From contig JADFYJ010000010.1 in NCBI GenBank assembly GCA_015233115.1, forward strand, positions 5,083 through 69,082: a stretch of 64,000 bases of DNA, in the 5' to 3' direction. Under the pieces are notes generated by a model. The model was not told the origin of the DNA. It did not search any database and worked only from the letters and a program-made list of their open reading frames with translations. Both the position numbers and the translations under genes were made by a program. Positions 7,576 through 38,900 of the stretch are shown one piece after another (the stretch's first letter is position 1; every line of letters starts with the position of its first letter). Source of the DNA: Candidatus Omnitrophota bacterium (lineage in GTDB: Bacteria > Omnitrophota > Gorgyraeia > Zapsychrales > Zapsychraceae).

Positions 7576-7591
7576 ATACCCATCCATTAAG

Positions 7592-9034: not shown

Positions 9035-9103
9035 TTTTTCCTCCTTTTTCTTTCTTGCTATAGTCTAAAAGAAAGAACGATTTTGTAAATTCTCAGAATC
9101 CGC

Positions 9104-9124: not shown

Positions 9125-9131
9125 TAAATAT

Positions 9132-9152
9132 GGACCACCGACGCGGTGGTCC
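9132..9152. terminator. Perfect 9-bp inverted repeat (GGACCACCG-acg-CGGTGGTCC) directly 3' of the yihY stop. Possible terminator or attenuator hairpin.
   Basis: Palindrome read from the sequence. No clear U-tract follows, so intrinsic-terminator status is uncertain. Confidence 0.35.
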
Positions 9153-9157
9153 AAAGG

Positions 9158-10486: not shown

Positions 10487-10569
10487 ATAATCTCCTAATG
10501 ATACGCGCCACGTTTGACCCACCCAGCGCTTTTACAACAATCGCTTTTCACTACATGCTACATGCACTT

Positions 10570-11451: not shown

Positions 11452-11820
11452 CTAGACTGCAGCCATATTAATTTTTTCTAAGAAAAACTCATGATTAAAC
11501 GGTTTCGATATGACACCGGAAACAAGATGAGCCACCTTTTCCTCTTTTAACATTTTTTCAATAAATGGTTTCCCGGTTACAATAAATACTTTGGTCATAG
11601 GATTTTTCTGGTTCATGCTCTTAAGCAGATCAATCCCGCTGACCCGGGGCATTTTAAAATCAAATATGGCGATTTCAAAATCATGTTGTTGGATCCACCT
11701 CATGCCTTCGTCGGGGTCAGAAGTATTCTTAACTTCATAACCCTCATCCATAAGGAAATCCGCCATACCTTCGCATAAATCAACATCATCATCAATAATT
11801 AAAATTCGTTTTTTATCCAT
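11452..11820 (-). CDS. Stand-alone response-regulator receiver (REC) protein. The likely start is MDKKRILIIDDD at 11820.
   Basis: ILIIDDD...D...K pattern of the CheY-like fold. It overlaps the upstream hybrid kinase stop by about 8 nt. Confidence 0.7.
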   Translation of the reverse strand: MDKKRILIIDDDVDLCEGMADFLMDEGYEVKNTSDPDEGMRWIQQHDFEIAIFDFKMPRVSGIDLLKSMNQKNPMTKVFIVTGKPFIEKMLKEEKVAHLVSGVISKPFNHEFFLEKINMAAV

Positions 11821-13318: not shown

Positions 13319-13336
13319 ACATTTTGCTTTGCTTTT

Positions 13337-13786
13337 TTAATTCTTAGGCGGCAATTTCACTATTGTAAACCAAAATTCTTGTATTGTCTTAGCCACTTTA
13401 ACAAACTGTTCAAGATCAACCGGTTTAGTAATATAACAATTCGCATGCAAATTATATGTCTTAATTATATCTTCTTCAGCCTTAGATACGGTCAACACCA
13501 CCACAGGTATGGCTTTTAATTTTTCATCATTTTTAATTTCCTTTAAAACCTCCCGGCCATCTTTTTTAGGAAGATTTAGATCTAGTAGTATAAGATCCGG
13601 GCGGACTGCCTGAGCATATCGGCCTTCTTTCTTCAAATACGCGACAGCTTCAACTCCGTCAGTCACCACATTTAGATTATTGAAAATCTTTTCTTCTTTC
13701 AAAGCTTCGGTAGTCAATCTGACATCGGCCGGGTTGTCCTCCACTAATAAGATTTCAATCGGTTGAATATTATTATCACGAAACAT
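13337..13786 (-). CDS. Single-domain CheY-like response regulator.
   Basis: [13 protein letters not shown]...[11 protein letters not shown]...K receiver signature. Confidence 0.8.
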
Positions 13787-13800
13787 GACATCCTCTCTTT

Positions 13801-15678
13801 CTAAACCTTTTTAGGAATTGTAAAATAAAATATAGAGCCTTTTCCATTCTCTGACTCAACCCATATCCGACCCCCACGCGTTTCCACAATTTTTTTGCAT
13901 ATCGACAATCCTATTCCAGTTCCGGAGTATTCTTCCCGGCCATGCAAACGCTGGAAAATAAGAAATATCCGGTCTTTATATTGTGCTTCTATTCCGATCC
14001 CATTATCCTTGACAGAAAATAACCACTCGTGTTCTTGCTCGGTCGCGCTAACGTGAACCCGGGGCGCTTCCCGGCTATGAAATTTAACCGCATTTCCCAA
14101 CAAATTTTGAAACAATTGAATAAAATTCGTTTCTAACCCATTTACTACCGGCAAATGATCGCGGGTTATCACCGCTTTTTGGCTATCGATCACAAACTTC
14201 ATGCTGTTGAAAATCCGATCAAATATCAAGTTACAATCAACAGCCACCATCGGCTTTTCAGCCCGGCCAACCCGGGAATAAGCGAGAAGGTCATTAATCA
14301 AATTCTGCATACGCCTCGCGCCATCGATTATAAAACTGATAAACTCATCCGCGTCAGAATCTAATTTTCCTTTATAACGCCTTTCCAAAAGACCGGCATA
14401 GCTCCCCATCACCCTTAAGGGTTCCTGTAGATCGTGTGATGCCACGTACGCAAATTGCTCCAGATTCTCATTGGAGCTTCTCAGTTCCTTCTCCACATGC
14501 ATCCGTTCATTCACTTCTTTGTTTAAATCATCTCTCGACGCGGTAATTAATTTCAAATCCCGGGTCATCTTATCAAAAGACCGGGAAAGATCGCCGATCT
14601 CATTCTTAATCGGCAAGGATACTTGATGTTCCAAATTTCCGGCCCCGATGATTTCCGCCCCTTTTATTAGATCTTTGATCGGCTTAGAAATCGTCCACCC
14701 CATCACAAAAGCCATGGCCCCAGTCACAATAATAATGACCAAAATAATCCGTACAATGAGTCGCTTTAAATGCTCCACATCTTCAAATGCTTCCTGAGTA
14801 TCAATTTTAGCCACCATCCCCCACTGCAAATATGGAATATAGTGCCACGCCGCTATCACTTCCTTGCCCCGATAATCAGTAAGTATCCCTGAACCTTCCT
14901 GACCTTGCACGGCCCGTTGAATAGGTTCGCCGTTTTTATCGCCCATTTTAATGCTTCTTTGAAGCGTTGCTTGAGAGTCATGCCGCAAAGGATTTAAAAA
15001 TATGACCTGATCCCCAATTTTTTTCCCGATCAAGGTTTCTCCCGTCTTCCCCAATCCGGTTGCTTCCCCAATAAGCTGGAAAATGGGTTTCGCGTCAACT
15101 TCAAAAACAACCAGCCCTGCCTCCACATCTTTTGAATCATAAGCTGGGCCTGCCACCATAATCTCAAAATTTTTCCCCATGGATTTGTTCAAAAAAATAT
15201 TGGAAAAATAAATTCGTTTTTTCCCTTCTTCAAAAACGGTTTGATCTGGGTCGGACAAAAGTTTCTCGAATTCCCAAAGGTAATGTTGAGGATTAGTGGT
15301 ATATACGACCTTTCCCTCAAGATCAACCAGCATAATATCCGATAAACCCAAAACCTTTTGCATTTTGGGTAATTGTTCATCCAGCATCTTTTTAGCGTTA
15401 ATGAATTTTAAATTATTGGGATCTCTCGCAAATTGAACTAATATCGGAAGGTTTTGTCTTATATTATAAAGACTTTGCGCGATTTCCAAATTCGCCTTTA
15501 ATCCGGTAAAATAAACTTCGATTTTGTCGGCTTTATATTTAGCCAAGTCTTTCAACTGAGAAAGCCGGTTTTTTTCCAAAGAATATCTATAATTATTAAA
15601 TGTAATCGCGCTGGCCATGATGAGCGGAATCGTGGCCACAATCAAAAACATGATAATTAATTTTACACGAATTGACAT
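13801..15678 (-). CDS. Membrane sensor histidine kinase with an N-terminal TM helix, an extracytoplasmic Cache-like domain, a second TM helix, HAMP, then a HisKA (phytochrome-type HDLQEPLR H-box) and HATPase core.
   Basis: [11 protein letters not shown]-box and GTGIGL G2 box. Two TM helices flank a periplasmic domain of about 270 aa. Confidence 0.8.
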
Positions 15679-20402: not shown

Positions 20403-20780
20403 TTACTTTTTTTTATTTTTTAAAAGTTCTACTATTTTAGCGCTTAAAACATCCAAATCAAAGGGCTTTGTCATATAAAAATCCGCACCAATAACCCGGC
20501 CGATCACCCGGTCCGCATCTGAATCTTTTGAGGTCAGCATGATAATCGGGGTTTTTGCTATTTTCGCGTCACTTCGGATCTCTTTGCAAACAGCTTCACC
20601 GGGCAATTGCGGCAGTTTCAAATCCAAAATAATTAAATCAGGGTTACGGAGCCTTGCCTTCTCCAGCCCTTCTTTACCATTAGCCGCGATCGCGACATCA
20701 TAACCCGCATCTTCCAATACAAACCTAACCGTCTTTGTAATATCCACTTCATCATCGATCATGAGTATCATTTCGTGCAT
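20403..20780 (-). CDS. Single-domain response regulator (REC).
   Basis: ILMIDDEVDI...LIILDLKLP...K motifs. Directly abuts the TSUP gene. Confidence 0.8.
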   Translation of the reverse strand: MHEMILMIDDEVDITKTVRFVLEDAGYDVAIAANGKEGLEKARLRNPDLIILDLKLPQLPGEAVCKEIRSDAKIAKTPIIMLTSKDSDADRVIGRVIGADFYMTKPFDLDVLSAKIVELLKNKKK

Positions 20781-20810
20781 AATTAACTCCTGCTTGATAT
20801 ATGTTCATGA

Positions 20811-22916
20811 TTACACTGGTACAGGGTCCCGCTTTTCTTGTTCCACCGAAAAAGAAAAATAAAAAGAACTGCCTTTATTTAACTCTGACTCTACCCAAAT
20901 TTTACCACCTTGCGCCTCAATCAGACCCTTAGTGATCGCCAACCCCAAACCACTGCCCCCTTCATGACGAACCCGGACATCAGATGATCTATAAAACTTA
21001 TTAAATATTTGCTGTGAATCCTCCCGCGACATTCCAAAGCCTGTATCCGTCACACTAGCTTGAACTTCCCATCCTTTATCTTCTATTATAACAGTTACCT
21101 CCCCATTTTCTGGAGTAAATTTTATAGCATTGTGAATTAGATTTGTAAAAACTCTTCGCGTCTTTTCCGGATCAATCAAAATGACCACTAATTCTTTTTC
21201 TGCCGAAATCCGCAAACTAATCTTTTTTTCATCCGCGTAAGATTGCAAAGCGGCCATCACTTCCCTGGCCAAAACAAAAAGGTTAGTAGGCACTTTGTAT
21301 ACCGTCAAAACACCCGCTTCAATTTTTGAAATATCTAAAAGATCACTGACAATACGCGCCAACCGGTCCGTATTATTTAAAATCATTTCCAAAAATTCTT
21401 TCCGGTCATCAGTATCCATTTTCCCAGAAGCCCCATCTTTTAATAATATCGTAGCCGCATTTTTTACCGAAGTTAAAGGCGTCCTTAACTCATGAGAAAC
21501 GATCGCGACAAAATCATTCTTCATCTTATCCACTGAATTTAATTTTTCATTCATTTCATTAACCAATGCAATCATAGTCTCTCTTCGTTTTAACGCGATA
21601 AAAAAAACGACCGTCAGAATACAAACGAACATAGTAAAAAAAATGCTTAACAAACGATATTGAATTATCGGCGAAGCGGAAATATTTTTCTTCAAAACTA
21701 CGACGCCCAAAATTTTATCTTTCTCATCTTTAATAGGAAAACTCACATAATAAACTCTTTGGGCATAAATAGCCCCTAAAGTAAAATAATATCCAGTCTT
21801 GCCATTCATGGCTTGTTTAAAGTACGAGGCAGAAACAAACGATTGATCCGTGGCTGTCCCCAAAGCATTCCCTCCAATGCTCAACACAGTTTTGCCGCCA
21901 ACATCCAGCATAAAAAACTCCACACTACTAAATTTTCCCATATAATCCTGAATCATCAAAACCGCCCGAGTCAAATCTTTGTCTTGGCGAGTCAAAAGCG
22001 CGGTCTTGACCGGACGAGAATGGCTAATAACTTTTCCGATTTTTTCTAATTGAGCCAATTCTTTGATAAGACGATTAAATGGTGAATATTCACTCTCCCG
22101 GCTTTTTTTAATGAGTTGAATTCCCGCGTAATAATCCAAGTAGTTCGTAAAAACCCAACCTGCCCCGATAAAAATGATCAAGGTTATCAAAATGATCCAT
22201 TTGGAAGGCTTTAAATAGACAAAAGGTTTTTTAGATAAAAGTTCGTTTCTTTGCGGAGTATAGGGGTAAAACCATAACGCCATAGCAGAAACTAATGCCA
22301 ACATTCCTCGCACCAACTGAACCGGAACTCCTATTTGCTGATAAAAAAATTCATCATTCAGCCATGATGCCCACAAATAATCAGCTTTAGGGACGATCAA
22401 TCCAGATAAAATAGCATAAACAAATAACCCAATACTTAAAACCCGCAAAGAATTTCTTTTAGACGGATTTGCTTGTGAAGCAGAGAAAATAATCCACGCC
22501 GATAATACACCAGCAGGGAATCCCACAAAATATCTGAACGTGATATTTAAACCGAGCAATCCTCCCTGAATACCCGAAAACGCCAAAGGCAGTATAAACG
22601 CGTATACCCACAAACTTCCTAATTTTTTCCCTTGCAACCGAAAGCCTATTCTCGCGAACTCCCAAAAACATATATACGAAAAAAATAAAACAGCTAAATG
22701 AGCAGCAGAAAAAGTAAAACTTAAATCATGGTTAATCTCCAGAATTTCCATCCACTCATTCAATCCATGAACCAAACCAAATAAACCTAACCAAAACCAA
22801 GGCAATAATTGTTCCCGATCATGGCGGAGACTGAAGCACAAAATCGACAATAAGAAGAAGGCGAGTCCATAAAAAAAATACACATAATCGTATTGAACAT
22901 TGAAAAAATTTTGCAT
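20811..22916 (-). CDS. Sensor histidine kinase: N-terminal multi-TM (7TMR-like) region, internal extracytoplasmic Cache-like domain, HisKA and HATPase_c.
   Basis: SHELRTPLTSV H-box, N box (HNAIKFT), DTGFGM, GGSGLGL. Confidence 0.8.
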   Translation of the reverse strand: MQNFFNVQYDYVYFFYGLAFFLLSILCFSLRHDREQLLPWFWLGLFGLVHGLNEWMEILEINHDLSFTFSAAHLAVLFFSYICFWEFARIGFRLQGKKLGSLWVYAFILPLAFSGIQGGLLGLNITFRYFVGFPAGVLSAWIIFSASQANPSKRNSLRVLSIGLFVYAILSGLIVPKADYLWASWLNDEFFYQQIGVPVQLVRGMLALVSAMALWFYPYTPQRNELLSKKPFVYLKPSKWIILITLIIFIGAGWVFTNYLDYYAGIQLIKKSRESEYSPFNRLIKELAQLEKIGKVISHSRPVKTALLTRQDKDLTRAVLMIQDYMGKFSSVEFFMLDVGGKTVLSIGGNALGTATDQSFVSASYFKQAMNGKTGYYFTLGAIYAQRVYYVSFPIKDEKDKILGVVVLKKNISASPIIQYRLLSIFFTMFVCILTVVFFIALKRRETMIALVNEMNEKLNSVDKMKNDFVAIVSHELRTPLTSVKNAATILLKDGASGKMDTDDRKEFLEMILNNTDRLARIVSDLLDISKIEAGVLTVYKVPTNLFVLAREVMAALQSYADEKKISLRISAEKELVVILIDPEKTRRVFTNLIHNAIKFTPENGEVTVIIEDKGWEVQASVTDTGFGMSREDSQQIFNKFYRSSDVRVRHEGGSGLGLAITKGLIEAQGGKIWVESELNKGSSFYFSFSVEQEKRDPVPV

Positions 22917-22983: not shown

Positions 22984-23014
22984 AAAAAAACGGGGAGGGT
23001 TTAAACCCTCCCCG
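22984..23014 (-). terminator. Rho-independent terminator downstream of the multicopper-oxidase gene: CGGGGAGGGTTTAAACCCTCCCCG hairpin with a U7 tail on the minus strand (and an A-tract on the other side).
   Basis: Perfect 10-bp GC-rich stem with a 4-nt loop, followed by TTTTTTT on the minus-strand transcript. Confidence 0.75.
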
Positions 23015-23037
23015 TCTCATATTATCGATTTACTTTT

Positions 23038-26000
23038 TTACGGGGTTGTAACATTTAATGTTACCCACGCTGATGTACTCACTGTATTAGTTGCTTGTAT
23101 CCGATAATAATAGGTAGTGCCTCGGCTCAAACCTAAATTCAAATAGGATCTAGCTGTAGAAGCAACCACATACTTAGTCACATTTTGAGTAAAGGCAGAA
23201 TCTGTCGCCCTTTGGATCGAGAATCCTGTCAAAGGTGTTCCGGTTTCCTGCCAAGAAAGCAAAACTTGCGCCATAATCGTTCCGAACAGTGACGCAGATC
23301 CCGCAAAACTCGTCGGGGCTGCTAAAATGGCAGCCGACGGCGTGACGCTATTCGTTGCTGCTGATGCCGCGCTGGTTCCGATGGCGTTCGTTGCGGTTAC
23401 GGTAAACGTATACGCTGTGCCATTCGTTAATCCTGTCACCACTATCGGCGCCGCATTCGTTGTTCCAACTCCGACTATACCTCCGGGGTTAGACGTCGCG
23501 GTATATCCTGTGATCACACTCCCGCCATTCGATGCTGGAGCTGTGAAACTTACAGTTGCTTGCGCGTTTCCTGCCACTGCACTTGCTGCGGTCGGTGCGC
23601 CTGGGACTGTTGCTGGAGCCAATGGTGTTACACTATTCGTCGGTGCTGATGCCGCGCTGGTTCCAATGGCGTTCGTTGCGGTTACGGTAAACGTATACGC
23701 TGTGCCATTCGTTAATCCTGTCACCACTATCGGCGCCGCATTCGTTGTTCCAACTCCGACTATACCTCCGGGGTTAGACGTCGCGGTATATCCTGTGATC
23801 ACACTCCCGCCATTCGATGCTGGAGCTGTGAAACTTACAGTTGCTTGCGCGTTTCCTGCCACTGCACTTGCCGCAGTTGGTGCGCCTGGGACTGTAACAA
23901 CAACTGGAACAAACGTAAACCTAAAAGCATCCGCGACAACAATTCCATTGGTGGTTCCTGTTGTCCGGATCCGTACAAAACCAGTTTGCCCTGCGGCAAA
24001 CGTATATGTCCCAATGGGGAACCACTGACTGCCATTCAGTCGCTCATTCACATTGACTGTGCTGATCCCGGTTGTTGAAGAAACATCAACAGGAACAGCG
24101 GTGGCCTGATTAGCTCGGGCAGGATACCACATTTCTACTTTATATTGTCCTGCCGTCGGAAGATTAGGCTTAAACGTGAACGTCTTGGTCCCTTTCCCTG
24201 TATTATTATCCGTCCGGTAATTGGTTGCCCAATATCCGGCATTCGTGGTTGCCGTGGTCCATGTTCCAACAATAGCTATTGCTGGTACAGGGTCAGCATT
24301 GTCCACAATAATCGGCGGCTGTGTCGGAATCACAGTATTTGACGGGATTGAAGGCAACCCTGTCCCCACAGCGTTAGTCGCTGTGACTGTAAACGTATAC
24401 GCCGTACCATTCGTTAAACCTGAAACGACAATCGGACTTGATGCTCCAAGAGCTATTATGCTTCCAGGATTAGACGTCACGGTATATCCTGTAATCGGAC
24501 TGCCGCCAGTTCCTATCGGCGGATTAAAGCTTACTGTGGCCTGAGCATTGCCAGCTACTGCTGTCACTGCCATTGGTTCAGGCGGAACAGTTTGGAATAT
24601 GACCGGACGCATCATATCCATCTCTTCATGACCGAGCAAGTGACAATGCCAGACGTATTCATTTCCGAAATTGGTCATCTGATTAACCACCGTAATCGGT
24701 CCGCCAGTGAGAGGATCAAAACTACTAAATGTCGTTCCTAACGGCATCGTCGGATCCAAAGGCCGGATACTGTCTGGCACAGCGAATGGAACATTCTTTT
24801 GCGAAATCGGTCTTAACGCCACAATCGCATCTTCCAATGGATTCATCCTCACTGTATCCTTCCATCCCAGCTCATTAGGTTCTGGCGGCTTAACAACTCC
24901 AGCCCAGTCAACCCGGTTAATCAGCTGAACATTGAATAAGTGAAAATGAATCGCATGTGTATCTACCCCATTATGGGTGACTTTCCAAATTTGGGTTTCA
25001 CCATCTTTAATAATTTCCGTCGCCGGAGCGATATACCCTAGAGGAACAGTCGTTTGAGTATTGGAATTTGTAAACGGCAATTCAACACCCAAAATAGAAT
25101 TCATCCGACCATAATCAAGTTCAAAAAGCTCTTGTATGGCCTTGGGCTTCATCGGCATGGTGATCGGTGCTGTCGCCCCAATAGGAGTGTAAGTTAATGA
25201 CGTGTCTTGTATCTTTGAATATACATTTGGTAGAGTCTTTCCATACGCTGGACCATAAGCAGCTTGCGGCACTAAAGGCGCAGGCTGAGACGCCACAAAT
25301 GCGGCCGGTAATGCTGACTGCAAAGCGGCTAAATTAAATGCCGGATCTGCTGTCGGACTAGATACCTGGAATTGCATAATGGTACGGGTATTAGGACCAT
25401 AACCAGGCAACGTCGTTGGCGCACCGCCGATAGCCGTTTGATCCAGATCGCCGGTATAATAATCTAAGCGGGGATCGCCTGCCGGAACCGGCGCAGGAGA
25501 ATCATTATAGAGAATAATTTTTGAACCGTCCGGAACTTGCGAAAAGTCAATGATGACATCAGCCCGTTCAGCCGGCCCTAAAAACAAATTATGTTCTTTA
25601 ACATTCAAAACCGTAATACTTCTTTTATCCAAATCGTAACCAATGGGGATATTAGGAAGTACAACCGGCGCTGGCAAAAATCCGCCTTCTGTACCGATCT
25701 GAATCATGGATGGACCAACCATCGTCGGGTCTGGCCATCCGCCATTTCTGCCATCTGGTGTCGGCCATCCTGTCGGCCAAACGCCAGGGATAGCTGGAAC
25801 TGTTTTAATTTCCGTCGGATTTGCCGGATCAACATAATACAATTGCAAATTAAGGAAGCGGTCATTACAAGCATTTAAAATACGAAACCGGTATGCTTTG
25901 CGAGCAACCTTTACATAAGGATAAGCTGTCCCATTCACCAACGGCGTATCCATAAATGCTTCCATAACCATGGATGTATCCGGTGTACCAGGCTTTTGAA

Positions 26001-27228
26001 ATCCAGTTACAGGGTCTACAACCGGACCATGAACCAGACCAGCTGCTGTCGTGACTGGCGGCCAAAACCAGGGGCCATAATCCCAACGGCCAAACGCATT
26101 AACACCTAATGGGTCATTAGGATTCTGATTCGGCATATACACATGAGGAAACCATAAATCGCCCGTCATAGGCATCCCTGGCATAGATCCGGAATTCCAA
26201 GTAGGATCTGTGGCCGCGATCTTAGTTGCATCCACAAAAGTTTTATCCTGAATAATCAAAGGAATACCATAATGATAAACACCGCCTAAATCCGGAAGAA
26301 CTTTTTGTGTGCTGATCAAATTCTCTTCAGTCGGATCTGATAACACATAACCTGCGGCCTCACCTGCATAAACATTCAAGCGCGTAATACCAAAGGCGTG
26401 ATCATGATAAAACATGAGGCGTGCGCTTTGTTGATTCGTATAAAAAAACGTTTGCGAACCATCGCCTGGATCAGGCATGTCCGGGACATTGGTCACACTG
26501 ACACCTTTAGGGTAGGAAGTAATTTCTCCAGCTGGAGTGATCCATTGGTGCGGAGTGCCGTCGCTAATCCAAGGAGTGTTGCCCCCATGAAGATGCAAGG
26601 TAGCCCGGTTTTGAGTATAACTTTCTTTCATGCCCGGCATGCCTGGCATATCCGTCGGCCCCATCCCTGCTCCCATCACAGTTGTATCAACCGGGATAAA
26701 TAAATTACCGCCTGCGCCGGTCGGAAGTAAATTTGTAAACTTCACGCGCGTCGGACGGTTCATCTGGGCAATAATAACCGGCCCCAAATAATGCGGTTGC
26801 GGCCACGCTGTGATCTTCCCAGTAAGCGGATCACGAGTCGCCGGGTTAGCCGGATCATTCAATTGGACATAACCTCGCATCTTGGTTCCAGATTTGGGCA
26901 AATCAGAATGCATCTGTTCATTATATTCGACCAACCCAATTTCATAATAATCAGATCCGGGATAAGTTACCGTATCTGCTACAGCGACAGGAATAAACTG
27001 TCCCAGATTATTCGCGTTAGACGCTCCTAACCCAGGCAAAGAATCCACAAACTTTCTTAATAGCGGACTATTCGTCCAATTGGGAACATTAAAATAATCC
27101 GGAGCTGCTCCAGGAGTAGCCATAGGCATAGTTTGCGCTGAAACGTTAGGTGCAGTATATCCTCCCAAAACCATCATAAGCGTCAAAGCCAAGCTGGTTA
27201 ATTTTCGGGTCAAAGTATTCTTATTCAT
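23038..27228 (-). CDS. Giant secreted multicopper oxidase (three-cupredoxin laccase/CotA type) with several C-terminal fibronectin type III repeats and a beta-sandwich (carbohydrate-binding-like) domain. The likely start is MNKNTL at 27228, with an AAGGAGG RBS.
   Basis: All four MCO copper-ligand motifs are present: HLHGG, HDH, HAIHFH and WHCHLLGHEEMDMM. Sec signal peptide. Three FN3-like units share the motif AVAGNAQATVSF...SNGGS.ITGYT...VTGLTNGTAYTFTVTATN. The track ORF extends to 27318, but the in-frame ATG with an RBS is at 27228. Confidence 0.8.
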   Translation of the reverse strand: MNKNTLTRKLTSLALTLMMVLGGYTAPNVSAQTMPMATPGAAPDYFNVPNWTNSPLLRKFVDSLPGLGASNANNLGQFIPVAVADTVTYPGSDYYEIGLVEYNEQMHSDLPKSGTKMRGYVQLNDPANPATRDPLTGKITAWPQPHYLGPVIIAQMNRPTRVKFTNLLPTGAGGNLFIPVDTTVMGAGMGPTDMPGMPGMKESYTQNRATLHLHGGNTPWISDGTPHQWITPAGEITSYPKGVSVTNVPDMPDPGDGSQTFFYTNQQSARLMFYHDHAFGITRLNVYAGEAAGYVLSDPTEENLISTQKVLPDLGGVYHYGIPLIIQDKTFVDATKIAATDPTWNSGSMPGMPMTGDLWFPHVYMPNQNPNDPLGVNAFGRWDYGPWFWPPVTTAAGLVHGPVVDPVTGFQKPGTPDTSMVMEAFMDTPLVNGTAYPYVKVARKAYRFRILNACNDRFLNLQLYYVDPANPTEIKTVPAIPGVWPTGWPTPDGRNGGWPDPTMVGPSMIQIGTEGGFLPAPVVLPNIPIGYDLDKRSITVLNVKEHNLFLGPAERADVIIDFSQVPDGSKIILYNDSPAPVPAGDPRLDYYTGDLDQTAIGGAPTTLPGYGPNTRTIMQFQVSSPTADPAFNLAALQSALPAAFVASQPAPLVPQAAYGPAYGKTLPNVYSKIQDTSLTYTPIGATAPITMPMKPKAIQELFELDYGRMNSILGVELPFTNSNTQTTVPLGYIAPATEIIKDGETQIWKVTHNGVDTHAIHFHLFNVQLINRVDWAGVVKPPEPNELGWKDTVRMNPLEDAIVALRPISQKNVPFAVPDSIRPLDPTMPLGTTFSSFDPLTGGPITVVNQMTNFGNEYVWHCHLLGHEEMDMMRPVIFQTVPPEPMAVTAVAGNAQATVSFNPPIGTGGSPITGYTVTSNPGSIIALGASSPIVVSGLTNGTAYTFTVTATNAVGTGLPSIPSNTVIPTQPPIIVDNADPVPAIAIVGTWTTATTNAGYWATNYRTDNNTGKGTKTFTFKPNLPTAGQYKVEMWYPARANQATAVPVDVSSTTGISTVNVNERLNGSQWFPIGTYTFAAGQTGFVRIRTTGTTNGIVVADAFRFTFVPVVVTVPGAPTAASAVAGNAQATVSFTAPASNGGSVITGYTATSNPGGIVGVGTTNAAPIVVTGLTNGTAYTFTVTATNAIGTSAASAPTNSVTPLAPATVPGAPTAASAVAGNAQATVSFTAPASNGGSVITGYTATSNPGGIVGVGTTNAAPIVVTGLTNGTAYTFTVTATNAIGTSAASAATNSVTPSAAILAAPTSFAGSASLFGTIMAQVLLSWQETGTPLTGFSIQRATDSAFTQNVTKYVVASTARSYLNLGLSRGTTYYYRIQATNTVSTSAWVTLNVTTP
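23331..23880. repeat. Near-identical tandem duplication of about 288 bp (two copies) inside the MCO gene, each encoding one FN3 repeat. A third, diverged copy lies at about 24330-24600.
   Basis: The two DNA copies, starting about 23331 and about 23620, are identical over more than 250 nt apart from a few substitutions. Confidence 0.85.
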
Positions 27229-27526
27229 TTTTACCTCCTTCACCCATTCCGCAGGCAGCACCAGAAACTGTGGTTGTTTCAACCGGCCCGTCGTTGGTTG
27301 TGCTAAGAGTTGCCGCATTTTGTTGCTCAGATCGACGAGCTGCCGCTGCTTCTCTTTGCTCTGTGGTCACGCGTTTCATTCGGCGTTGCATGATGGCTTG
27401 TGCATCATGACTTTTCAACGGCGGCTGAGGCGTTTGTTCCTGCGCCCGAACCTGAGCAACGCCTGCCCAAAGAGCAGTAGCACTCAGAAGCACACTTCCC
27501 ATGATAATAAGTTTATTCTTGTTCAT
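27221..27526 (-). CDS. Small (101 aa) secreted protein of unknown function encoded immediately upstream of the MCO gene, overlapping its start by 8 nt.
   Basis: AAGGAGG RBS 5 nt before the ATG at 27526. Signal peptide MNKNKLIIMGSVLLSATALWAGVAQVRA, a Q/R/A-rich middle and a C-terminal ...SGAACGMGEGG. Confidence 0.45.
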   Translation of the reverse strand: MNKNKLIIMGSVLLSATALWAGVAQVRAQEQTPQPPLKSHDAQAIMQRRMKRVTTEQREAAAARRSEQQNAATLSTTNDGPVETTTVSGAACGMGEGGKNE

Positions 27527-27667
27527 GATTCCTCCTTAATACTTACGTTTTTATTATTTTTCTGTCATAGATTAATTCGAATTGATGTTCTTTAAAAAAT
27601 TATAAAACATTTTAAACTTTTAAAAATCGGCATTTTCCACCAGCTATTGACTTTTTTCCACCTGATT

Positions 27668-27697
27668 CCATAATTACAAAAAAACCCTGTACCATGC
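27668..27697 (-). terminator. Rho-independent terminator after the yqjE-like gene: CCCTGTATCGCATGGTACAGGG hairpin with a U7 tail on the minus strand.
   Basis: 7-bp stem with an 8-nt loop, followed by TTTTTTT on the minus-strand transcript. Confidence 0.65.
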
Positions 27698-27727
27698 GAT
27701 ACAGGGCTACCATTGTTCGATCATCGT

Positions 27728-29249: not shown

Positions 29250-30623
29250 CTATTCTTTAAAACTCACTTTTCCAGACCGGATAATATCTGAATATTTTTG
29301 TGCTGATGGCCGGATTGTCCGCTCCTGCGTCGCATAATTTACTTCGATCAATCCAAAACGAGGACTAAATCCTTCTGCCCATTCATAATTATCCATTAAT
29401 GACCAATAAAGATAACCGAAGACTGAAACTCCCTCTTTCATCGCCTGGGCTGTAGCTCGAAGGTGTGCTGTAATAAACTCTGCCCGCTGAGTATCATCAT
29501 TTGTACAAATACCATTTTCCGAAATTAAAAGCGGCAGTTTATATCGGGAAAATTCTTTCAAAAACGTATAAAGTCCCTGCGGATAAATTTCCCAACCTAA
29601 ACCATTTCTCTGACCTTGAAGATTTTTTATTAAGCATTCATTTCCTAAAATATCCGGAAGCAAAAACCCCCGGCTACGAACATATTCCCGGGTATAATAA
29701 TTCAAACCAATAAAATCCAAAGTTCTGGCTCGGGGAAGACGCACCTTGAAAAGCCCCAGTACTTTGACTTTTCCCTTGATTAACGCTTCAACAAATAAAT
29801 GATTAATCACCTGACTTCTTACCCGCGCGGAAAGCCGATCCCACATTGAAAAACCTGAACACGGCTCGAATAAAACCACTTGTTGGGCTATTCCCACCAT
29901 GGGATGCTTCCATCCCTTTAGAACATAAATTTTTTTGATCTTTTCATAGGCCATAACATGGGCTTTAGCTAAATTTCGAACCACTTGAAATGCCTTTTGG
30001 TTTGATTTCTCCCCCGGTGGCCACTGTCCGGTCATATACCCTTTATAGGCATACACAGCGGGTTCATTTAACGTAATCCAATACTTTACATCGCCGCCTA
30101 AAGCTTCAATCGCGATTTGAGTATATCGGGCAAAAAGTTCTGGACTATTATCCGCAAGCCAGCCTCCCTGATTCGCCAACCATAAAGGAATCGTAAAATG
30201 ATTGAGCGTGATGATGGGCTCCATTCCCTTAGTTTTTAAAGAAAGGATCATTTGGCGGTAATGATCAAGTGCAGCTTGGTCGAACTGACCGGGAAAAGGT
30301 TCAATCCGGCTCCATTCCAAAGAAAAACGATACGCTGTTAATCCTAACTTTTGTGCCAATAGGAAATCGCTCTCAAAACGGTTCCATTCATCACACGCCA
30401 CGCCGGAACGCATCGCCGCCGGTATATGCTGTTCCCATTGCCACCAATCATTATGAGTATTATTACCTTCAACCTGGTGAGATGATGTGCCCGCTCCCCA
30501 CAAAAAATTTTGAGGGAAAGTAAATTCCTGCGGTACTTTTTCTCTTATTGTTTTTTGAGTGCCTGCACAACCTTGTCCCAAAACAACAAAAAAAACTAAA
30601 ACAAGGGCAGTTATCCTTCTCAT
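29250..30623 (-). CDS. Secreted glycoside hydrolase family 1 (beta-glucosidase or beta-galactosidase type). The likely start is MRRITALV at 30623, overlapping the upstream gene stop (TAATG).
   Basis: GH1 signatures are present: YRFSLEWSRIEP, WITLNEP (acid/base Glu) and LISENG (nucleophile Glu). N-terminal signal peptide. Confidence 0.85.
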   Translation of the reverse strand: MRRITALVLVFFVVLGQGCAGTQKTIREKVPQEFTFPQNFLWGAGTSSHQVEGNNTHNDWWQWEQHIPAAMRSGVACDEWNRFESDFLLAQKLGLTAYRFSLEWSRIEPFPGQFDQAALDHYRQMILSLKTKGMEPIITLNHFTIPLWLANQGGWLADNSPELFARYTQIAIEALGGDVKYWITLNEPAVYAYKGYMTGQWPPGEKSNQKAFQVVRNLAKAHVMAYEKIKKIYVLKGWKHPMVGIAQQVVLFEPCSGFSMWDRLSARVRSQVINHLFVEALIKGKVKVLGLFKVRLPRARTLDFIGLNYYTREYVRSRGFLLPDILGNECLIKNLQGQRNGLGWEIYPQGLYTFLKEFSRYKLPLLISENGICTNDDTQRAEFITAHLRATAQAMKEGVSVFGYLYWSLMDNYEWAEGFSPRFGLIEVNYATQERTIRPSAQKYSDIIRSGKVSFKE

Positions 30624-31282
30624 TATTGTGAGGTAGTTACCGTCGTAGTTGTGGTTGTGGTACTCGTCCCTTTCGGTAAATACATTGTAATGGAACGGGC
30701 CCATTGTTTTCCATCTTTAACCACAAATTCAATCTTGACGACATTACCCGGCTTCAGGTTTAATTGAACAGGCTGGCTGCTAGGACTTTGCATGACGATA
30801 ATATCTTTAGGTTCAAAAGCGAATGAAGACAGACTATTTTCGCCCTCTTCACCTGCGCCTGGTCTCTCTGTCAACGTCAATGTTCCAGCCGCAAGATCTA
30901 TGGACTGAATTGCGCCATAGGCTATTTGAAATTCAGATGTGGTTCTGGGTTCCGTCGTAATTTTTTGGACAATCTTCTCTTCTTTCCCATAAATCACATC
31001 AACTGTCACATGTTGTCCCGGCTGTAAGTCCTTAATTGAAAGAAACTTCTTATCCGACGGATCTGTAACGCGCGTTTCATTCTCGGTAATTCGGTACTCG
31101 CTTATTTCACCCTTGTTAGGAGGCGCGTCTTTAAGCTGCAGTTTGCCGAGCTTAGTATCTATCCAGGTGATTTCTCCTGACACGTGATGCACAGACTCAT
31201 TCGCTGCCGCGCATATAGAAACTCCAGTCAATAACACCCCAGCCGTAACCGCAAAAAACATTTTAAAATAATTTATGTTCAT
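30623..31282 (-). CDS. Secreted protein of unknown function with a poly-Thr C-terminus (TSTTTTTTTVTTSQ).
   Basis: Signal peptide. No recognisable catalytic motif. Confidence 0.4.
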   Translation of the reverse strand: MNINYFKMFFAVTAGVLLTGVSICAAANESVHHVSGEITWIDTKLGKLQLKDAPPNKGEISEYRITENETRVTDPSDKKFLSIKDLQPGQHVTVDVIYGKEEKIVQKITTEPRTTSEFQIAYGAIQSIDLAAGTLTLTERPGAGEEGENSLSSFAFEPKDIIVMQSPSSQPVQLNLKPGNVVKIEFVVKDGKQWARSITMYLPKGTSTTTTTTTVTTSQ

Positions 31283-32216: not shown

Positions 32217-32843
32217 CTATTGTTTCCCCAGGTTGTCCGAAGCAAAATTCCAATTGATTAATTTATCCAAAACAGCCGTCACATAATCTCCCCGTAAATT
32301 TTGATAGTCCAGGTAATACGCGTGTTCCCACACATCAATGGTTAATAGCGGCTTCATGCCCTTGACCAGCGGCAAATCCGCATTACTGGTTTTAACCACC
32401 TTAATTTTTCCTCCATCCACGACCAGCCATGCCCAACCGCTGCCGAACTGAGTTGTTGCCGCAGTCGCCAACTCTTTTTTGCAAGCTTCTAATGTACCGA
32501 AAGATTCTTCGATTTTTTGATGTAATGCGGAAGATGGTTTTCCTCCGCCCTTTGGGCTCAAACTCTTCCAATAAAACGCATGATTCCAGGCCTGCGCGGC
32601 ATTATTAAAAATCGGAGCCTTATCAATTTTACCGGCAGTTTCAGTTATAATTTTTTCTAGCGGCATATCTGAAAATTCTGCTCCCGCCACAAGTTTATTT
32701 AAATTATCGACGTAGGCTTTATGATGTTTACCATAGTGAAAACTCATTGTTTTTGCTGAAATAATCGGCTCTAACGCATTTTCCGGGTAAGGCAAAGCCG
32801 GCAAAACATGCAAATATTTATTTTCTGCGTTTTTATCATTCAT
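32217..32843 (-). CDS. Fe/Mn-family superoxide dismutase.
   Basis: Metal-ligand motifs [24 protein letters not shown] and [13 protein letters not shown]. Confidence 0.9.
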
Positions 32844-32945: not shown

Positions 32946-35900
32946 TCATTGACTATTTTCCGCTATCATTCGAACCTCTACTCGGTGATCTTGATGATCA
33001 TCAATAAGTTCGATCATTTTATTCTCTTGTAGATGGCCATCTACTAAGACCCCAGCCAGACCGCTTCCCAGCAGGATCTGTGAAACTTCAATGTGATACA
33101 ACGTATCTCGATAACGGTAATGTATTTTGAATGTTTTCCATTCCGGAGGAAGACAGGGTTCTATTGATAATTGATTCACATTTAATCTTAAGCCCAAAAG
33201 AAACTCCAGGAGTAATCGGTACATCCAGCCCGCTGACCCGGTATACCAGGTCCAACCGCCGCGGCCCACATGAGGAGCAACCGCGTAAACATCTGCCGCA
33301 ACCACGTAAGGCTCCACTTTATATATATTAATTTCTTCCAAAGATTTTCCGTGATTGACGGGATTGATCATATCCAGAAGTTCCCAAGCCATACGGCTAT
33401 CCCCAAGCCGGGCAAAAGCCATAGCCGCCCAAATGGCCGCATGAGTATATTGCCCGCCATTTTCCCTCACACCTGGAACATAGCCCTTGATATAGCCCGG
33501 GTTCATTCCAGATTTATCGAATGGCGGATCAAGCAGTTGAATAATCTGTGTATCCCGGTGGACCAAACGCTGATTAAGAGACGTCATGGCCTTCCGGCCG
33601 CGGTCAGGATCAGCTGCCCCAGAAAGAACAGACCAGCTTTGCGCGATAGAATCAATCTGGCATTCAGAATTACCTGCTGACCCCAGAAGGGCCCCATCAT
33701 CAAAATACGCGCGTCTGTACCATTCTCCGTCCCACCCGTTTTTCTCAATATTTTGCTTTAGTTGAATCAATTGAGCGCGGCAAATTTCCACAAAAGCACT
33801 ATCATCGCGCAGCTGGGCCATTTTAATAAATTGCGTCAACACATCATAAAGAAAAAATCCTAACCAAACACTTTCCCCCTTACCCTGCTGTCCGACACAA
33901 TTCATTCCGTCATTCCAGTCACAGGAACCCATGAGGGGTAATCCATGTTGCCCGATACTCAAACTTTTAATAATAGCCCGCTGGCAATGCTCATACAAAC
34001 TCACTTTTTCAGATGACTGTTTGGGCAAATCGTAATACGAATCTTCCTCTACGGTAACCATCCGACCGCGCAAAAAAGGAACCAACTCATCTAAGACACC
34101 CGTATCCCCTATGCTCAGGACATAATGGCACGTAGCGTATACTAACCAAAGATAATCATCTGAACAATGGGTGCGAACGCCTCTTCCCGAGGGAGGATGC
34201 CACCAGTGTTGGACATCACCTTCGAGGAATTGATGGGACGCGCACAAAAGTAAATGTTCGCGCATGAGGCGCGGTTCGCAATGGTTCAAAGCCATTACAT
34301 CCTGTAACTGATCTCGGAAACCAAACGCCCCGCCGGATTGATAATAACCGCTGCGCCCCCAGAGACGGCAGGCCAAAGTTTGATAAATCAACCAGCCGTT
34401 GGCCAGGACATTGAGCGATGAATCAGGTGTCTCTACCTGCACAGCACCAATCGTATGTGTCCAGTACTTATTCACAGCGTCTAAAGCTTCCTGCGCCCCC
34501 GATGACCCGCAAAAATTCCGCACCAGATTTTTGACCTGCTCAACATTGTGACCCGCTCCCAGAGTAAAAACAATTTCACGTTCTTCTCCATCCGCTAACT
34601 CAAACGGAACCTGAATCGCGGCGCAGGGATCTAAGGCCGAACCCGTTCGTCCAGAAAGATGAGCCCGTAATAACGCGTCCGGCTTATGAATTGATCCATT
34701 GCGCCCTAAAAATTCCGCTCGATCCGCGCATATGGTCCGGCCCATATCATTGGTCGAAAAAAACGCGATGATGTCAGAAAACTCCGAATTGTAAAAATTT
34801 CGGGCATAAATCGCTCCGTTTATAGGATCCACTTCCGTATGGACATGCATGACGGTCTTGGATCTCAAATCTCCCAGCACCCATTCCACATAACCTGTGG
34901 CAGAAAGCCGGCGAGGCCGTCCAGAAATATTCCGTATTTTAAGAACCGAAAATTTGACCGGTGACTCTAGCGCCACATAAACCCATAACTCTGAATGAAG
35001 CCCTCCTTCATCATGCTCAAAAACACTATAACCAAATCCGTGACGAATCAGATACGGGTGCCGGGAATGCACTGGTTGAGGCGCCGGAGACCAAACCTGC
35101 CCAGTTTCTTCATCCCGTAAATAAAAAGCCTCTCCCGTTAAATCGTTCACCGGATCATTATTCCAGGGACTCAAACGAAATTCATGAGCATTCTCGCTCC
35201 ACGTATAGGCCAATCCATTCTCGGAAATAATGGTGCCGAAATGCGCGTTCGCTAACACATTGACCCATGGGGCTGGAGTCACTTGATCTGATGAAAGACA
35301 AATGACATACTCTCGTCCATCCGGAGTAAACCCTCCTAATCCATTGAACAAAATTAAATCATGCCGCGTTTCACCCAAAGATGGGGCGATTGCCGGACGG
35401 AACGTTTTAACAGGAATAAACTGCTCAACAGGAAATTCACTAAAATTATGGCGATAAATTTGATTGGCCAATGTTCCCCTGCGGTCTGAAATAATGGCCC
35501 GAGCAACAGACTGAAACAAAATACGTTCTTCGTCGGATATTTGTTCAGCGGGCCGCACGAATATCTCGCCGGAATTATGCGCAATTTGAGACTGAACAGT
35601 CGCGCTAATCAATCCCATAATTTGTTCCTGTAATAACTGCCGATAACCCGAAAGAGCTTCATTCCAGATCACCAAATCAACAGCGAGCCCTTTTAACCGC
35701 CAATACGCGTGAGCCTGCACCATCTGCCTGACTATTTCAACATTGGCCAAATCTCCAATTTGCAAAATCACCATGGGCAGGTCACCAGAAATGGCCGATC
35801 CCCACAACCCGCTTTGACCACGGCGATTTTGAATAAGCACAGCAGGGTCCGCCCGGAGTGATGCATGGGCATAAATAATAAAACCCGCCAGATGCCCAAA

Positions 35901-38900
35901 AAGCTGGGCATCGGTTTCTGTCGCGTTGATCTGCCGCAAAACCACCTGACTGTGAGTCCAGGACAATTCAAAAACGCGGTCCGCGATACGCCAATCATGA
36001 TATTTTTCAATCAAACTTAAAGCTTTATCGCGCGTTTCACCCATGCCGTAAACCATATTAATAATAACGGTCTGTTCCGGTTCAAGGGACATCTGACCAC
36101 GGATCACTGTCACTGGATCCAGCACGGAGCCCTGGCTCCCGGAAAGATCATGAGACTGAGTCATTGCGTAAGGTTCAGCCAGATTATAACCGCGTCCGAT
36201 AAACTGCATACGGTCAGTTTCATAGGATACCTTTTGAATTTCAGCGTCATGCACGGACATTAAATGAAACATCCATGGCTCCTGTTCAGTAACAGACCTG
36301 GGACGACGAGAACACAAGATAGCCTGCTTTGATTTGATAATTTCAGTCTGCACAAAAAGATTACTAAACATTGGATGTAAGGCATCGGCCATATCCGGAG
36401 CCAGCACCACTTCTGAATAACTGGTCACCTCAATCACCCTCCTGCCCCGGGAACGATTGGTGATCCGCACTCGCCGCAGTTCTATATCATCTTCCGGTGA
36501 AACCACAATTTCCACATGAGTCTCCAATCCATAATCCCGCCGACGGAATTCGGCGCGTCCTTGTGAAAAAATAACTTCATAATTTTCCGGCTGTTTATGC
36601 GTGGGTTGATAGGCCGTCGACCAGAATTTTCCGCTTGCTATGTCGCGAATATAACAAAACACGCCCCAATTATCGCAAGTGGTGTCTTCCCGCCAACGGG
36701 TTACAGCCATATCCTTCCAGCGGCTGTAGCCTCCGCCCGCATTTGTTACCATGACATGATACCGGCCATTAGACAATAACTGTACTTCCGGAACCTGTGT
36801 ATGGGGACTTTTAAGTATGCGAACTGGCGACTGGGTTTCAGCGGCCAGCGCGCGAATATTGGAAAGTTCATTGACGTGAATATAAAATGGGATACTCTTA
36901 GGAATTCTCTCTTGAAGCAATAACATGTTAGCCTGAAAAAGCGGATCAGCTCTGAATCGTTTTTGCATAGGATGATCTAATAATACATATGCTAGAGCAA
37001 GTAAGCTCATCCCTTGATGGTGAGCCAAAAATGACCGGAGTATCGTACTCGACCTACCCCTCACCCGGCGTGATGGTGTATAATCAACCGCTTCATATAG
37101 ACCATACTGGCCCATCATCCCTTCACACGCTAGACGCTGTAAATTGAGACAAGCCGGTTCAGGCGTCACCATCAACGCCAGCAATGAAGCATAAGGCGCT
37201 ATAACCAAGTCTTCTGTTAATCCGCGCTTAAATCCTAATCCAGGAACACCAAACGCGCGATACTGGTAATTGAGATTCGCATCAATGGCATTATACCCAG
37301 ATTCCGAAATACCCCAAGCGACCCCAAACTGTTTTCCGTATTCAATTTGTCTTCCTACCGCGGCTTGATAAGTCTGTCCCAGCAGAGTATTTTCATACGT
37401 TGGCATGACCACCAACGGCATCAAGTATTCAAACATCGAACCGCTCCACGACAAAAGAGTTGGTTTTCCGCCGGAGGTAGTTAACAAACGTCCCAGGGCA
37501 AACCAGCTTTCCGAAGGCACTTGTCCCTGAGCGATCGCGGTAAAATAACATAATCTCGCTTCTGACGCCAAAAGATCATAAAATCCTGAATCTAATTTAC
37601 GTTCTTCCGAATAGTATCCTATAGATAACAATTTCCGTTTTACATCATAAAGAAAATCGTACTCCATCTGAGCAAAATCACCGGCTTGCCTAACTAAACG
37701 TTCAATATCGCTGATTCGTTTCAAAGCACGAGTACTTATCTCGCCTTCAACTTTTGTCAGCTCCCTAAGTGTTGGTATGCCCGTAATACCCGAATAATTT
37801 TTCGGAACCAAAAAGATTAAATCATCGAGTATATGCCGACATTGCTGAACCAGCTTTTGGGTCCACTCGATTGCTTCGGCCTCTGCGGATAGAGAAATTT
37901 TTGTATGAAATTCTTCGGCGTGCTGACCGAACGCTTCAAGCCACAATCGTACCTGCTCGAGTGTAGCCGGTTTAAATTCGTCAGCCGACTCTAAATCTTT
38001 TTCCAATTGATGAGTTGAAAACAAATTCATATCACCTATTGAATCCACCAAAACCAAAAACGTATCTTTCAAACTTTCCAGCCATCGCTCTCCTAAAATT
38101 TTGTCATCGCATAGAGCCAATAGTCCGGGCCGTAATGTCAAAAGAAAACCCGCCAGGTTGCCGCTGTCAACTGTTGAGATGTAGTTAGGAAGAAGCGGCT
38201 GCAAAGATTGTGTATCATACCAATTAAAAAAATGTCCGCGAAAACGTTTTAGCCCTGCCATGGAACGAAACGTATTTTCAGTTCGTTCCAGTAGCCTCTG
38301 CGCTGTCATGATACCAAAATCATACGCTGACAAATTAGCTAAAAGAGCCAGGCCGATATTGGTGGGTGAGGTGCGGTGTGAAATTTTAATCATCCGGGTT
38401 TCCTGGTAGTTATCAGGAGGAAGCCAGTGGTCTTCCTGCCCGACAAAGGTCTCAAAAAAATCCCAAATTTTCCGGGAAAGTTTTCGCAGAAAAAATAGTT
38501 GATTAGCGCTTAGTTTTACTTCCCTGCGGGGCATAAGCCGGCTGAGCCACCAGACACAAGCCGGTGATACCGCCCACAACAATAAAACAGGTCCGGCGAA
38601 CATCAAAGTGTGTGGCGCTGATCCGGCCAAATAAATAAACACCGAAACTGCTGTCACAGGAGCAATCCACATTAAAAGGAACGACCGAATCAAATCATTG
38701 CTGTCCCCATCCGTATCCGCATACAAATTCCATTCCAGAAACCGTTTATGAGTAATCAGCATCCGCACGACCGTACGCACGATCGCATCCAAAGTAAAAA
38801 AAGCTTCATAAGGAAGACATGCAACAGTAAAAGCCCTTTGAGCCAAACGCCCAGCCGCGGCCCGGAAGACTGTTTTTAAATGCTGTTTCCAGAAAACATC

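Follow-up and report, generated by a model that had tools for sequence, protein, structure and literature searches.

We analyzed a stretch of 64,000 nucleotides from a Candidatus Omnitrophota bacterium (hereafter the window; positions 5,083 to 69,082 of contig JADFYJ010000010.1, assembly GCA_015233115.1), the minus strand of which carries a bicistronic unit composed of a small gene (27526-27221) and the gene of a large secreted multicopper oxidase (MCO; 27228-23038). The small gene product is, judged by its sequence, the N-terminal helical module of this oxidase family, hereafter the N-module, provided as a separate secreted polypeptide. The unit comprises the following features, listed in the direction of transcription.

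27683..27708, minus strand: intrinsic terminator of the preceding gene (11-bp stem and T run), the upstream boundary of the two-gene unit
27531..27537, minus strand: Shine-Dalgarno sequence AAGGAGG of the small gene, seen in the sequence itself, 4 nt ahead of the ATG at 27526
27221..27526, minus strand: small gene (101 amino acids [aa]; MBF0479139.1 / HQL26_06615), encoding a signal peptide, the N-module, and a low-complexity linker
27443..27526, minus strand: predicted signal peptide of the small protein, residues 1-28, with cleavage after VRA (n-region MNKNK, hydrophobic core, and AxA-type site, from sequence features)
27332..27412, minus strand: N-module, residues 39-65, SHDAQAIMQRRMKRVTTEQREAAAARR, from the alignment with fused homologs, the logo, and a model
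27234..27240, minus strand: Shine-Dalgarno sequence AAGGAGG of the MCO gene, at a normal spacing from the ATG at 27228 and within the last codons of the small gene (..GEGG..)
27221..27228, minus strand: 8-nt start/stop overlap ATGAATAA, with the small-gene stop codon TAA (27223-27221) inside it
23038..27228, minus strand: MCO gene, 1396 aa, start ATG at 27228
27133..27228, minus strand: predicted Sec signal peptide of the MCO, residues 1-32, with cleavage after VSA and no twin arginine, from sequence features
24589..27132, minus strand: enlarged CotA-like three-cupredoxin core, residues ~33-880, from a phmmer match to CotA (1gsk) and the model of a homolog
24613..24648, minus strand: HCHLLGHEEMDM, residues 861-872, with the T1 Cys, His, and axial Met and two T3 His
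24334..24585, minus strand: fibronectin type III (FN3) unit 1, residues 882-965 (Pfam fn3), 67% identical to the duplicated unit
23914..24312, minus strand: beta-sandwich of the Golvesin_C / carbohydrate-binding module (CBM) type, residues 973-1105 (Pfam PF25275, E value of 1.2e-34)
23617..23901, minus strand: FN3 unit 2, residues 1110-1204, first copy of a 285-bp tandem duplication
23332..23616, minus strand: FN3 unit 3, residues 1205-1299, second copy of the duplication
23041..23331, minus strand: FN3 unit 4, residues 1300-1396, of a different subtype (Pfam fn3 / Pur_ac_phosph_N-like)
22987..23018, minus strand: intrinsic terminator 20 nt past the MCO stop codon (14-bp stem with 8 GC pairs and T run)

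Strong terminators lie on both sides of the pair (27708-27683 and 23018-22987), which is therefore a discrete bicistronic unit. A sequence-only reading of this DNA had proposed that the gene of a 101-aa secreted protein overlaps the MCO start by 8 nt, and this overlap, ATGAATAA, is exact. The open reading frames (ORFs) of the two genes share a longer overlap, between 27221 and 27318, if their frames are followed to the first ATG of the MCO frame; we rejected that codon (ATG 27318, ORF 23038..27318) as the MCO start since it has no ribosome-binding site and lies within the small gene.

A word-indexed search with the small ORF returned only the protein itself (MBF0479139.1, "Candidatus Omnitrophica bacterium"), and no Pfam or NCBIfam family matched it at an E value of up to 0.01. 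This orphan look was resolved by reading the N termini of the MCO homologs, in which a conserved segment separates the signal peptide from the start of the core (..PGGTPDYF..NSP..RKFVDxLPG) and follows the pattern [S/R][H/R]D-x-x-A-[IV]-x-[QE]-R-x-x-R-[IV]-T-x-A-Q-R-x-A-A-A-x-R. As defined here, an N-module is secreted, contains R-[IVM]-T-x-[AE]-[QDE]-R-x-A-A-A-x-R, and is either fused to an MCO of the family or encoded directly upstream of one. The definition covers the small ORF; in its sequence, SHDAQAIMQRRMKRVTTEQREAAAARR, the near-invariant positions are occupied by T54, R58, and A60-A62. A profile built from 89 homologs, with the window sequence left out, matches the small ORF with an E value of 3.2e-13 and no other of the 1067 ORFs in the six frames of the window, and the module aligns without gaps with those of 36 fused homologs. 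In a logo of 74 sequences, the T and the R reach 99%, the three Ala 88-100%, and the next R 88%; the motif T-x-x-Q/D/E has the pattern of a helix N-capping box, and the helix is Arg-rich and amphipathic. Conservation thus falls on T, R, and Ala and on no Cys, His, or Met. Of the 120 closest homologs of the window enzyme, 92 have the module fused in, after the signal peptide and ahead of the core, versus just 11 of 120 relatives of the Geomonas enzyme. It is absent from Pfam and NCBIfam and unmentioned in the literature that we searched.

The shape of the module was considered on models of P0117, a compact fused homolog that is ∼60% identical (and 53-66% identical to other family members in its alignments). 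In the second of two models, computed from a deeper alignment (mean pLDDT of 81, pTM of 0.85), the N-module forms a helix at residues 44-56, and the two 10-residue blocks that cover it have pLDDT values of 84 and 76; residues 19-39, before the helix, stay below 50, and the linker after it has values of 54-68. The same two blocks scored 72 and 64 in the shallower model. These predictions fit a structured, possibly docked element.

Several variants of the module were seen among the relatives. The stand-alone proteins P0242 (L088, 1912-2709) and P0287 contain two N-modules, and long Ala/Glu/Arg-rich helical extensions follow the module in the stand-alone proteins P0253, P0262, P0263, P0266, and P0270. 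Homologs of the Actinomycetota type (P0113, P0118, P0081, P0095, and similar proteins) have the module ITNADRLAAAxRAAAARA between two conserved cysteines, which suggests a disulfide-stapled version. The C terminus C-x-M-G-x-G-G-x-x-N-E is common to the small protein of the window (27221-27260, minus strand) and that of locus L082 (6240-6279); the motif is mostly explained by the embedded ribosome-binding site, which does not account for the Cys.

The split form is found in at least ∼14 other loci, distributed over Omnitrophota, Geobacteraceae, Methylococcaceae, and metagenomes, and in each of them an MCO gene with a signal peptide of its own lies 0-8 nt after the small gene. Split variants include L062, L068, and L075 in Geobacteraceae, L069, L049, and L078 in Methylococcaceae, and L029 in Omnitrophota. 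In L015, a Geobacter metagenome-assembled genome (MAG), a small ORF with an N-module (E values of 1e-6 to 6e-10) precedes an MCO with its own signal peptide, and in L024 (Geomonas paludis, 4903-11115) the order is an FKBP gene, a small ORF, and the MCO gene, with an ATGA overlap. The junction of the window is found identically, as ATGAATAA, in the independent genome of L082, whose small protein is 39% identical to ours (E value of 2e-11) and whose MCO is 48% identical overall. A search of 1.84 billion representative proteins with the N-module profile gave 60 matches at E values of up to 1e-3. These were fused MCOs, N-terminal MCO fragments, and small secreted proteins, about two dozen in number and 78-150 aa long; of the rest, a few were short fragments of ambiguous nature and one was a low-complexity protein, clearly spurious. 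In about 20 of the small stand-alone proteins, the C terminus reads GGxx(x), which reflects the ribosome-binding site of the gene that follows. Five stand-alone proteins were located on their contigs, each 0-8 nt ahead of a long gene, and in the four contigs for which DNA was at hand, this gene in each case encodes an MCO of the family (E values of 0 to 7e-180) with its own signal peptide.

In the window, module and core are separated by a stop codon, a ribosome-binding site, an ATG, and an entire second signal peptide, where the fused homologs have only a linker rich in Ala, Pro, Gly, and Ser; because these elements intervene, a sequencing frameshift cannot have created the split. Since a small gene followed at 0-8 nt by an MCO gene with its own signal peptide recurs in other loci, the comparison indicates that the split is a real gene fission and that the two-gene variant is established in several phyla. 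The sequence-only reading had staked its idea of a conserved, translationally coupled partner on the conservation of the small ORF at orthologous loci; the ORF is conserved there, so the idea stands, with the pairing recurring in many genomes.

The oxidase starts with a classical Sec signal (MNKNTLTRKLTSLALTLMMVLGGYTAPNVSA, followed by Q), made of MNKNTLTRK, a hydrophobic core, and a cleavage site after VSA, and at 1396 aa it agrees with the Sec-exported MCO of about 1400 aa that had been anticipated. Neither the signal peptide of the small protein nor that of the MCO contains RR, unlike the signal peptides of Tat-exported MCOs of the CueO type. The lack of a twin arginine had been observed correctly, but it does not set this enzyme apart within its family, given that any RR near the start occurs in only 11 of 240 MCO family homologs. 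The four copper motifs, HLHGG at residue 212, HDH at 275, HAIHFH at 758, and HCHLLGHEEMDM at 861, reproduce the series HxH, HxH, HxxHxH, and HCHxxxHxxxxM that we used to recognize a three-domain MCO, and they align residue for residue with the ligands of CotA, which bears out the three-domain assignment made earlier from the letters of the sequence. A phmmer comparison with CotA (1gsk), the nearest solved structure by sequence, gave an E value of 5.5e-35 in six separate pieces; the match is interrupted because the core spans ∼850 residues here versus 513 in CotA, with ∼350 aa of insertions relative to the latter. The first model of P0117 superposes on CotA and bilirubin oxidase with target-normalized TM-scores of 0.74-0.76 and an E value of 1e-34, so that the three-cupredoxin fold was recognized on the model of this homolog and not on the window protein. 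Neither sequence nor structure comparison found a solved structure closer to the MCO family than these two. The window MCO shares all copper ligands and the three-cupredoxin fold with CotA laccase and bilirubin oxidase (1GSK, 7Z5P), but it differs from CotA by an identity of only ∼22%, by the ∼350 extra core residues, by being secreted, and by its 500-aa tail and N-module partner. Its sequence thus designates it as a three-domain CotA-like oxidase with a complete T1/T2/T3 copper site. Because this site is complete, the enzyme should couple single-electron oxidation to the reduction of O2: it is predicted to take single electrons from an external donor and to reduce O2 to water.

A protein search with the MCO returned more than 6400 matches, with cores 60-70% identical in proteins of 900-2400 aa. 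The hosts are MAGs of Omnitrophota, Lentisphaerota, Planctomycetota, Elusimicrobiota, Patescibacteria, and others, and nearly all of the matches carry no annotation beyond "fibronectin type III domain-containing protein" or "FtsP/CotA-like multicopper oxidase." The giant size and the FN3 domains, which had been taken as what makes the oxidase unusual, are therefore traits of the family, found over more than 6000 matches, and the enzyme itself is an ordinary member of a very large and almost unstudied family. At least 548 relatives occur among species-representative genomes. Cultured organisms among the hosts include Geomonas, Geothrix, Neobacillus, Micromonospora, and Clostridium, and other relatives come from many MAGs of Geobacter and other Geobacteraceae, from Actinomycetota, Methylococcaceae, and Omnitrophota, and from methanogen and Bathyarchaeota MAGs. 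Geobacteraceae homologs with the same enlarged core are 43-55% identical to the query homolog P0117, and this core is shared by homologs from Geomonas, Geobacter sp. DSM 9736, Geomobilimonas, and Pelotalea.

Among described families, the closest is likely that of OmpB and OmpC of Geobacter and MofA of Leptothrix, a comparison made by published description and through the Geobacteraceae homologs; a search seeded with the Geomonas homolog returned only generic names and no protein named OmpB. OmpB of G. sulfurreducens (GSU1394) is an outer-surface MCO that has an FN3 domain and shares homology with MofA (PMC5566968). Like OmpB, OmpC (GSU2657), and MofA, the window enzyme is a large secreted MCO (>1000 aa), with a signal peptide and FN3, and is extracellular. 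The mofA operon also contains the FKBP isomerase gene mofB and the cytochrome gene mofC (PMC5566968), and an FKBP gene like mofB lies beside two of the relatives, L001 and L024. L001 (1-10155) has two tandem MCO genes of the family with the FKBP isomerase gene between them, which recalls the mofA-mofB pairing. A further likeness concerns the small gene, as ompB adjoins a hypothetical gene, GSU1395, and the two change expression together (PMC10599522). The window differs from the OmpB/MofA systems by the CBM-type domain in its tail and by having the N-module on a separate gene.

The tail of the MCO comprises ∼500 aa of binding modules, in the order one FN3 unit, a beta-sandwich, and three more FN3 units. 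Pfam finds four fn3 stretches and Golvesin_C at residues 973-1105, in agreement with the earlier description of at least four FN3 repeats and a beta-sandwich. The Golvesin_C match (PF25275) scores 119.6 bits against a cutoff of 31.6, and the sandwich also matches, across the whole domain, the C-terminal domain of a Paenibacillus xanthan lyase (6F2P, residues 906-1040; E value of 7.6e-33), where the domain sits on a lyase rather than, as here, on an oxidase. The golvesin domain is classed as CBM6/35/36-like, and proteins with such a module are lectins (PMC9166713). By these matches, the beta-sandwich is assigned as a CBM-type domain. Among the relatives examined, Golvesin_C was found only in P0159 and in another Omnitrophota MCO (L029), and the module may be a lineage-specific surface-binding device. 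L029 has three tandem Golvesin_C domains at the end of its MCO (5548-10251) and two more in a neighboring ORF (11692-14268). More generally, the C-terminal modules of the family are interchangeable, being FN3 arrays, Ig-like ASH/DUF1573 domains, FG-GAP repeats, or, rarely, Golvesin_C.

The C terminus of the MCO is an FN3 unit without a sorting or anchor motif, so that any surface retention would be noncovalent, most plausibly via the CBM-type module. The tail would most likely be a spacer-and-binding arm that holds the enzyme on a glycan, either of the cell's own envelope or exopolymer or of a substrate polymer. Of the earlier view that the enzyme is surface anchored or substrate bound, the FN3 array and the binding-type sandwich are thus retained, and a covalent C-terminal anchor is not. 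The two near-identical FN3-encoding copies reported before were also found, at 96-97% identity (23332-23610 and 23617-23895), with a period of 285 bp instead of ∼288 bp. Their 10 mismatches all lie at the edges, and a core of 206 nt (23381-23586) is identical in both copies, which fits a recent duplication or gene conversion; with such a core, a short-read assembler could also have collapsed further copies. The number of FN3 units varies widely in the family (proteins of 1000-2400 aa). The window contains no paralog of the MCO, no second CBM, and no second N-module.

We consider it likely that the pair is an operon for a secreted OmpB/MofA-type MCO and its split-off N-module, the latter being a core-binding partner, and the two gene products very probably work together. 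The small protein, which has its own signal peptide, would be made in step with the MCO via the 8-nt start/stop overlap. After export, the helix of the N-module would bind the MCO core through its conserved T/R/Ala face and would act as a maturation or stabilizing partner, or as a lid or gate, for the core; in most close relatives, a flexible linker joins module and core. Such assistance would be of use since the enzyme must fold and assemble four coppers after Sec export. The pattern of fusion and fission, the translational coupling, and the restriction of the module to one enzyme family argue for a physical interaction of N-module and core. A functional precedent exists in the Mnx complex of Bacillus, in which the gene of the large MCO MnxG is directly preceded by genes of small accessory proteins, and MnxE and MnxF stay bound and are needed for the active enzyme. 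The likeness lies in small partners encoded upstream of a large MCO, and we claim no homology; MnxG is a six-domain MCO, and the N-module, in contrast to the Mnx partners, also exists fused to its enzyme.

Several observations weigh against this reading. A pLDDT of ∼80 is also possible for a free helix. Neobacillus (L004, L005, L007), Clostridium (L042), and Micromonospora (L009) have the N-module in neither fused nor split form, and since some relatives do without either, the module is not indispensable for the fold. The link to OmpB and MofA was set by description and through the Geobacteraceae homologs, and no neighbor genes of the mofB, mofC, or Sco type occur in the window; OmpB's own gene cluster has no mofB either, and mofB, mofC, and Sco neighbors are not reported for every member. 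Moreover, genetic data connect OmpB with the reduction of Fe(III), an activity not expected of an oxidase. Finally, a collection of 15 billion proteins contains the small protein but no exact match to the MCO product (1396 or 1426 aa); public annotation may treat the MCO gene differently, for example as dropped, flagged, or a pseudogene.

A stronger form of the favored reading, which we put forward only tentatively, is that the N-module, when split, is an obligatory subunit supplied in trans, as a built-in maturation factor, copper-loading helper, or gate peculiar to oxidases of the OmpB/MofA type, and that the split loci represent a two-component class of MCOs. Active recombinant MofA or OmpB has been hard to obtain. 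If the obligatory-subunit proposal is true, it would account for this difficulty, and genes like GSU1395 would be missing parts of the metal-redox machinery of Geobacter and Leptothrix.

The nature of the substrate is a separate matter. Extracellular MCOs of the OmpB/MofA type are tied to the redox chemistry of Fe and Mn, and the substrate of the window enzyme may, by analogy, be sought there; for MofA, whether it is Mn or Fe is debated (PMC11412304). Alternatively, the enzyme might be a laccase directed at a lignin-like, humic, or polyphenolic polymer, which we regard as possible though doubtful; the lignin-like or polyphenolic target put forward by the sequence-only reading was a guess. A laccase activity on polymers would suit the closest solved relatives, CotA laccase and bilirubin oxidase, the CBM-type and FN3 modules, typical of polymer-degrading exoenzymes, and the wide variation of the C-terminal modules (FN3, Ig-like, FG-GAP, CBM), as seen in carbohydrate-active enzymes. 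However, all genetic and physiological data on the family bear on Fe and Mn redox (PMC5566968, PMC11412304), the family is enriched in metal-cycling or anaerobic lineages (Geobacteraceae, Geothrix, Holophagaceae, and Methylococcaceae), and CotA itself oxidizes Mn(II) (PMC3618234). MCOs of the family also occur in MAGs assigned to Bathyarchaeota, Methanomassiliicoccales, Methanospirillum, and Methanoregula (L023, L030, L046, L061, and L066), with the N-module-like segments KVTPEERKVAADR and RVSQAEKEAAAVD in L046 and L066; an O2-reducing enzyme is odd in strict anaerobes, which might be explained by contaminated bins or by a different role of the enzyme.

As for the N-module, an unlikely alternative to a core-binding partner is that it serves as an address or anchor, with a helix that is recognized by a secretion or sorting machine, for example of type II, or that sticks to the envelope, a mineral, or another protein; in split loci, the small protein would then be a separate surface factor. 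The Arg-rich, amphipathic character of the helix agrees with this possibility, as do the need of OmpB for an atypical type II system (PMC5566968; PMC10599522), the long extra Ala/Glu/Arg extensions or second modules of P0253, P0263, P0266, P0242, and P0287, and the dispensability of the module in some lineages. Yet split MCOs would lose their address, and the split arrangement is common; the module is also present in monoderm Actinomycetota and Neobacillus and in archaeal MAG homologs, which have neither an outer membrane nor a type II system; and its strict co-occurrence with one enzyme family over 1.84 billion representatives argues for an interaction specific to that family.

It is very unlikely that the small protein is a copper chaperone or delivery factor of the CopZ/CusF kind, as had been suggested from the sequence before. 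The gene is directly upstream and translationally coupled, Sec-type export implies that metallation is needed outside the cytoplasm, and a C-x-M-G motif lies near the C terminus of both the window protein and its nearest relative, P0247. This motif, however, is missing from the other stand-alone proteins and overlaps nucleotides constrained by the ribosome-binding site. Pfam and NCBIfam gave no HMA, CusF, PCuAC, or Sco match, and the conserved T/R/Ala-Ala-Ala/R face, devoid of metal ligands, argues against such a chaperone.

That the split is an artifact or a product of decay, i.e., a frameshift or assembly error in a fused gene or a dead 5' remnant, is hardly credible: the source is a MAG, the two reading frames share 27221-27318, the MCO product is missing in its exact form from the protein collection, and the gene holds a repeat prone to assembly error, but no linker of a fused homolog contains the ribosome-binding site, ATG, and canonical signal peptide that lie here between module and core, the ATGAATAA junction is also present in L082, start/stop junctions of 0-8 nt occur in at least five more contigs, and the invariant residues of the N-module are intact.

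Among the neighbors of the operon, genes for small membrane proteins and for a GH1 enzyme are present, as are those of a membrane-bound sensor histidine kinase, which has a weak match to dCache, and of a single-domain response regulator. The latter two (20403-22916, minus strand) come right after the MCO terminator; we rejected them as parts of the system, given the strong terminator in between and the fact that they are not kept beside relatives. Upstream of the operon by 3-5 kb lie the gene of an Fe/Mn superoxide dismutase and a 219-aa ORF (32217-32843 and 30623-31282, minus strand), the latter with a subthreshold CusF-like match (25.2 bits versus a cutoff of 27); these genes hint at oxygen exposure and copper handling. 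Farther away, a 2865-aa ORF (32946-41543, minus strand) combines a GT2-like stretch, a glucoamylase-like stretch, two GH94 supersandwich stretches, and a GH94 catalytic domain, an architecture typical of a cyclic beta-1,2-glucan synthase, and a GH94 gene is also found near the MCO pair of L001. A 1204-aa fusion of GT4, type I phosphodiesterase, and endonuclease/exonuclease/phosphatase domains adjoins a B12-binding radical SAM protein (43170-46784 and 41540-43198, minus strand).

Oxidases of the OmpB/MofA type have repeatedly been implicated in the extracellular cycling of iron and manganese. The value of the present locus is that an "orphan" small gene was shown to be the N-terminal module of the family, expressed separately and conserved across phyla; the window adds a clear case of the split form from Omnitrophota, in which the tail, unusually, carries a CBM. 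With regard to annotation, the small proteins labeled "hypothetical" upstream of MCO genes, of which there are dozens, are part of the enzyme, and annotation pipelines may misread split loci as frameshifted genes. For the family, a conserved and unannotated helical module, either fused to the oxidase or supplied by a coupled small gene, is a concrete component for expression, structural, and knockout work.

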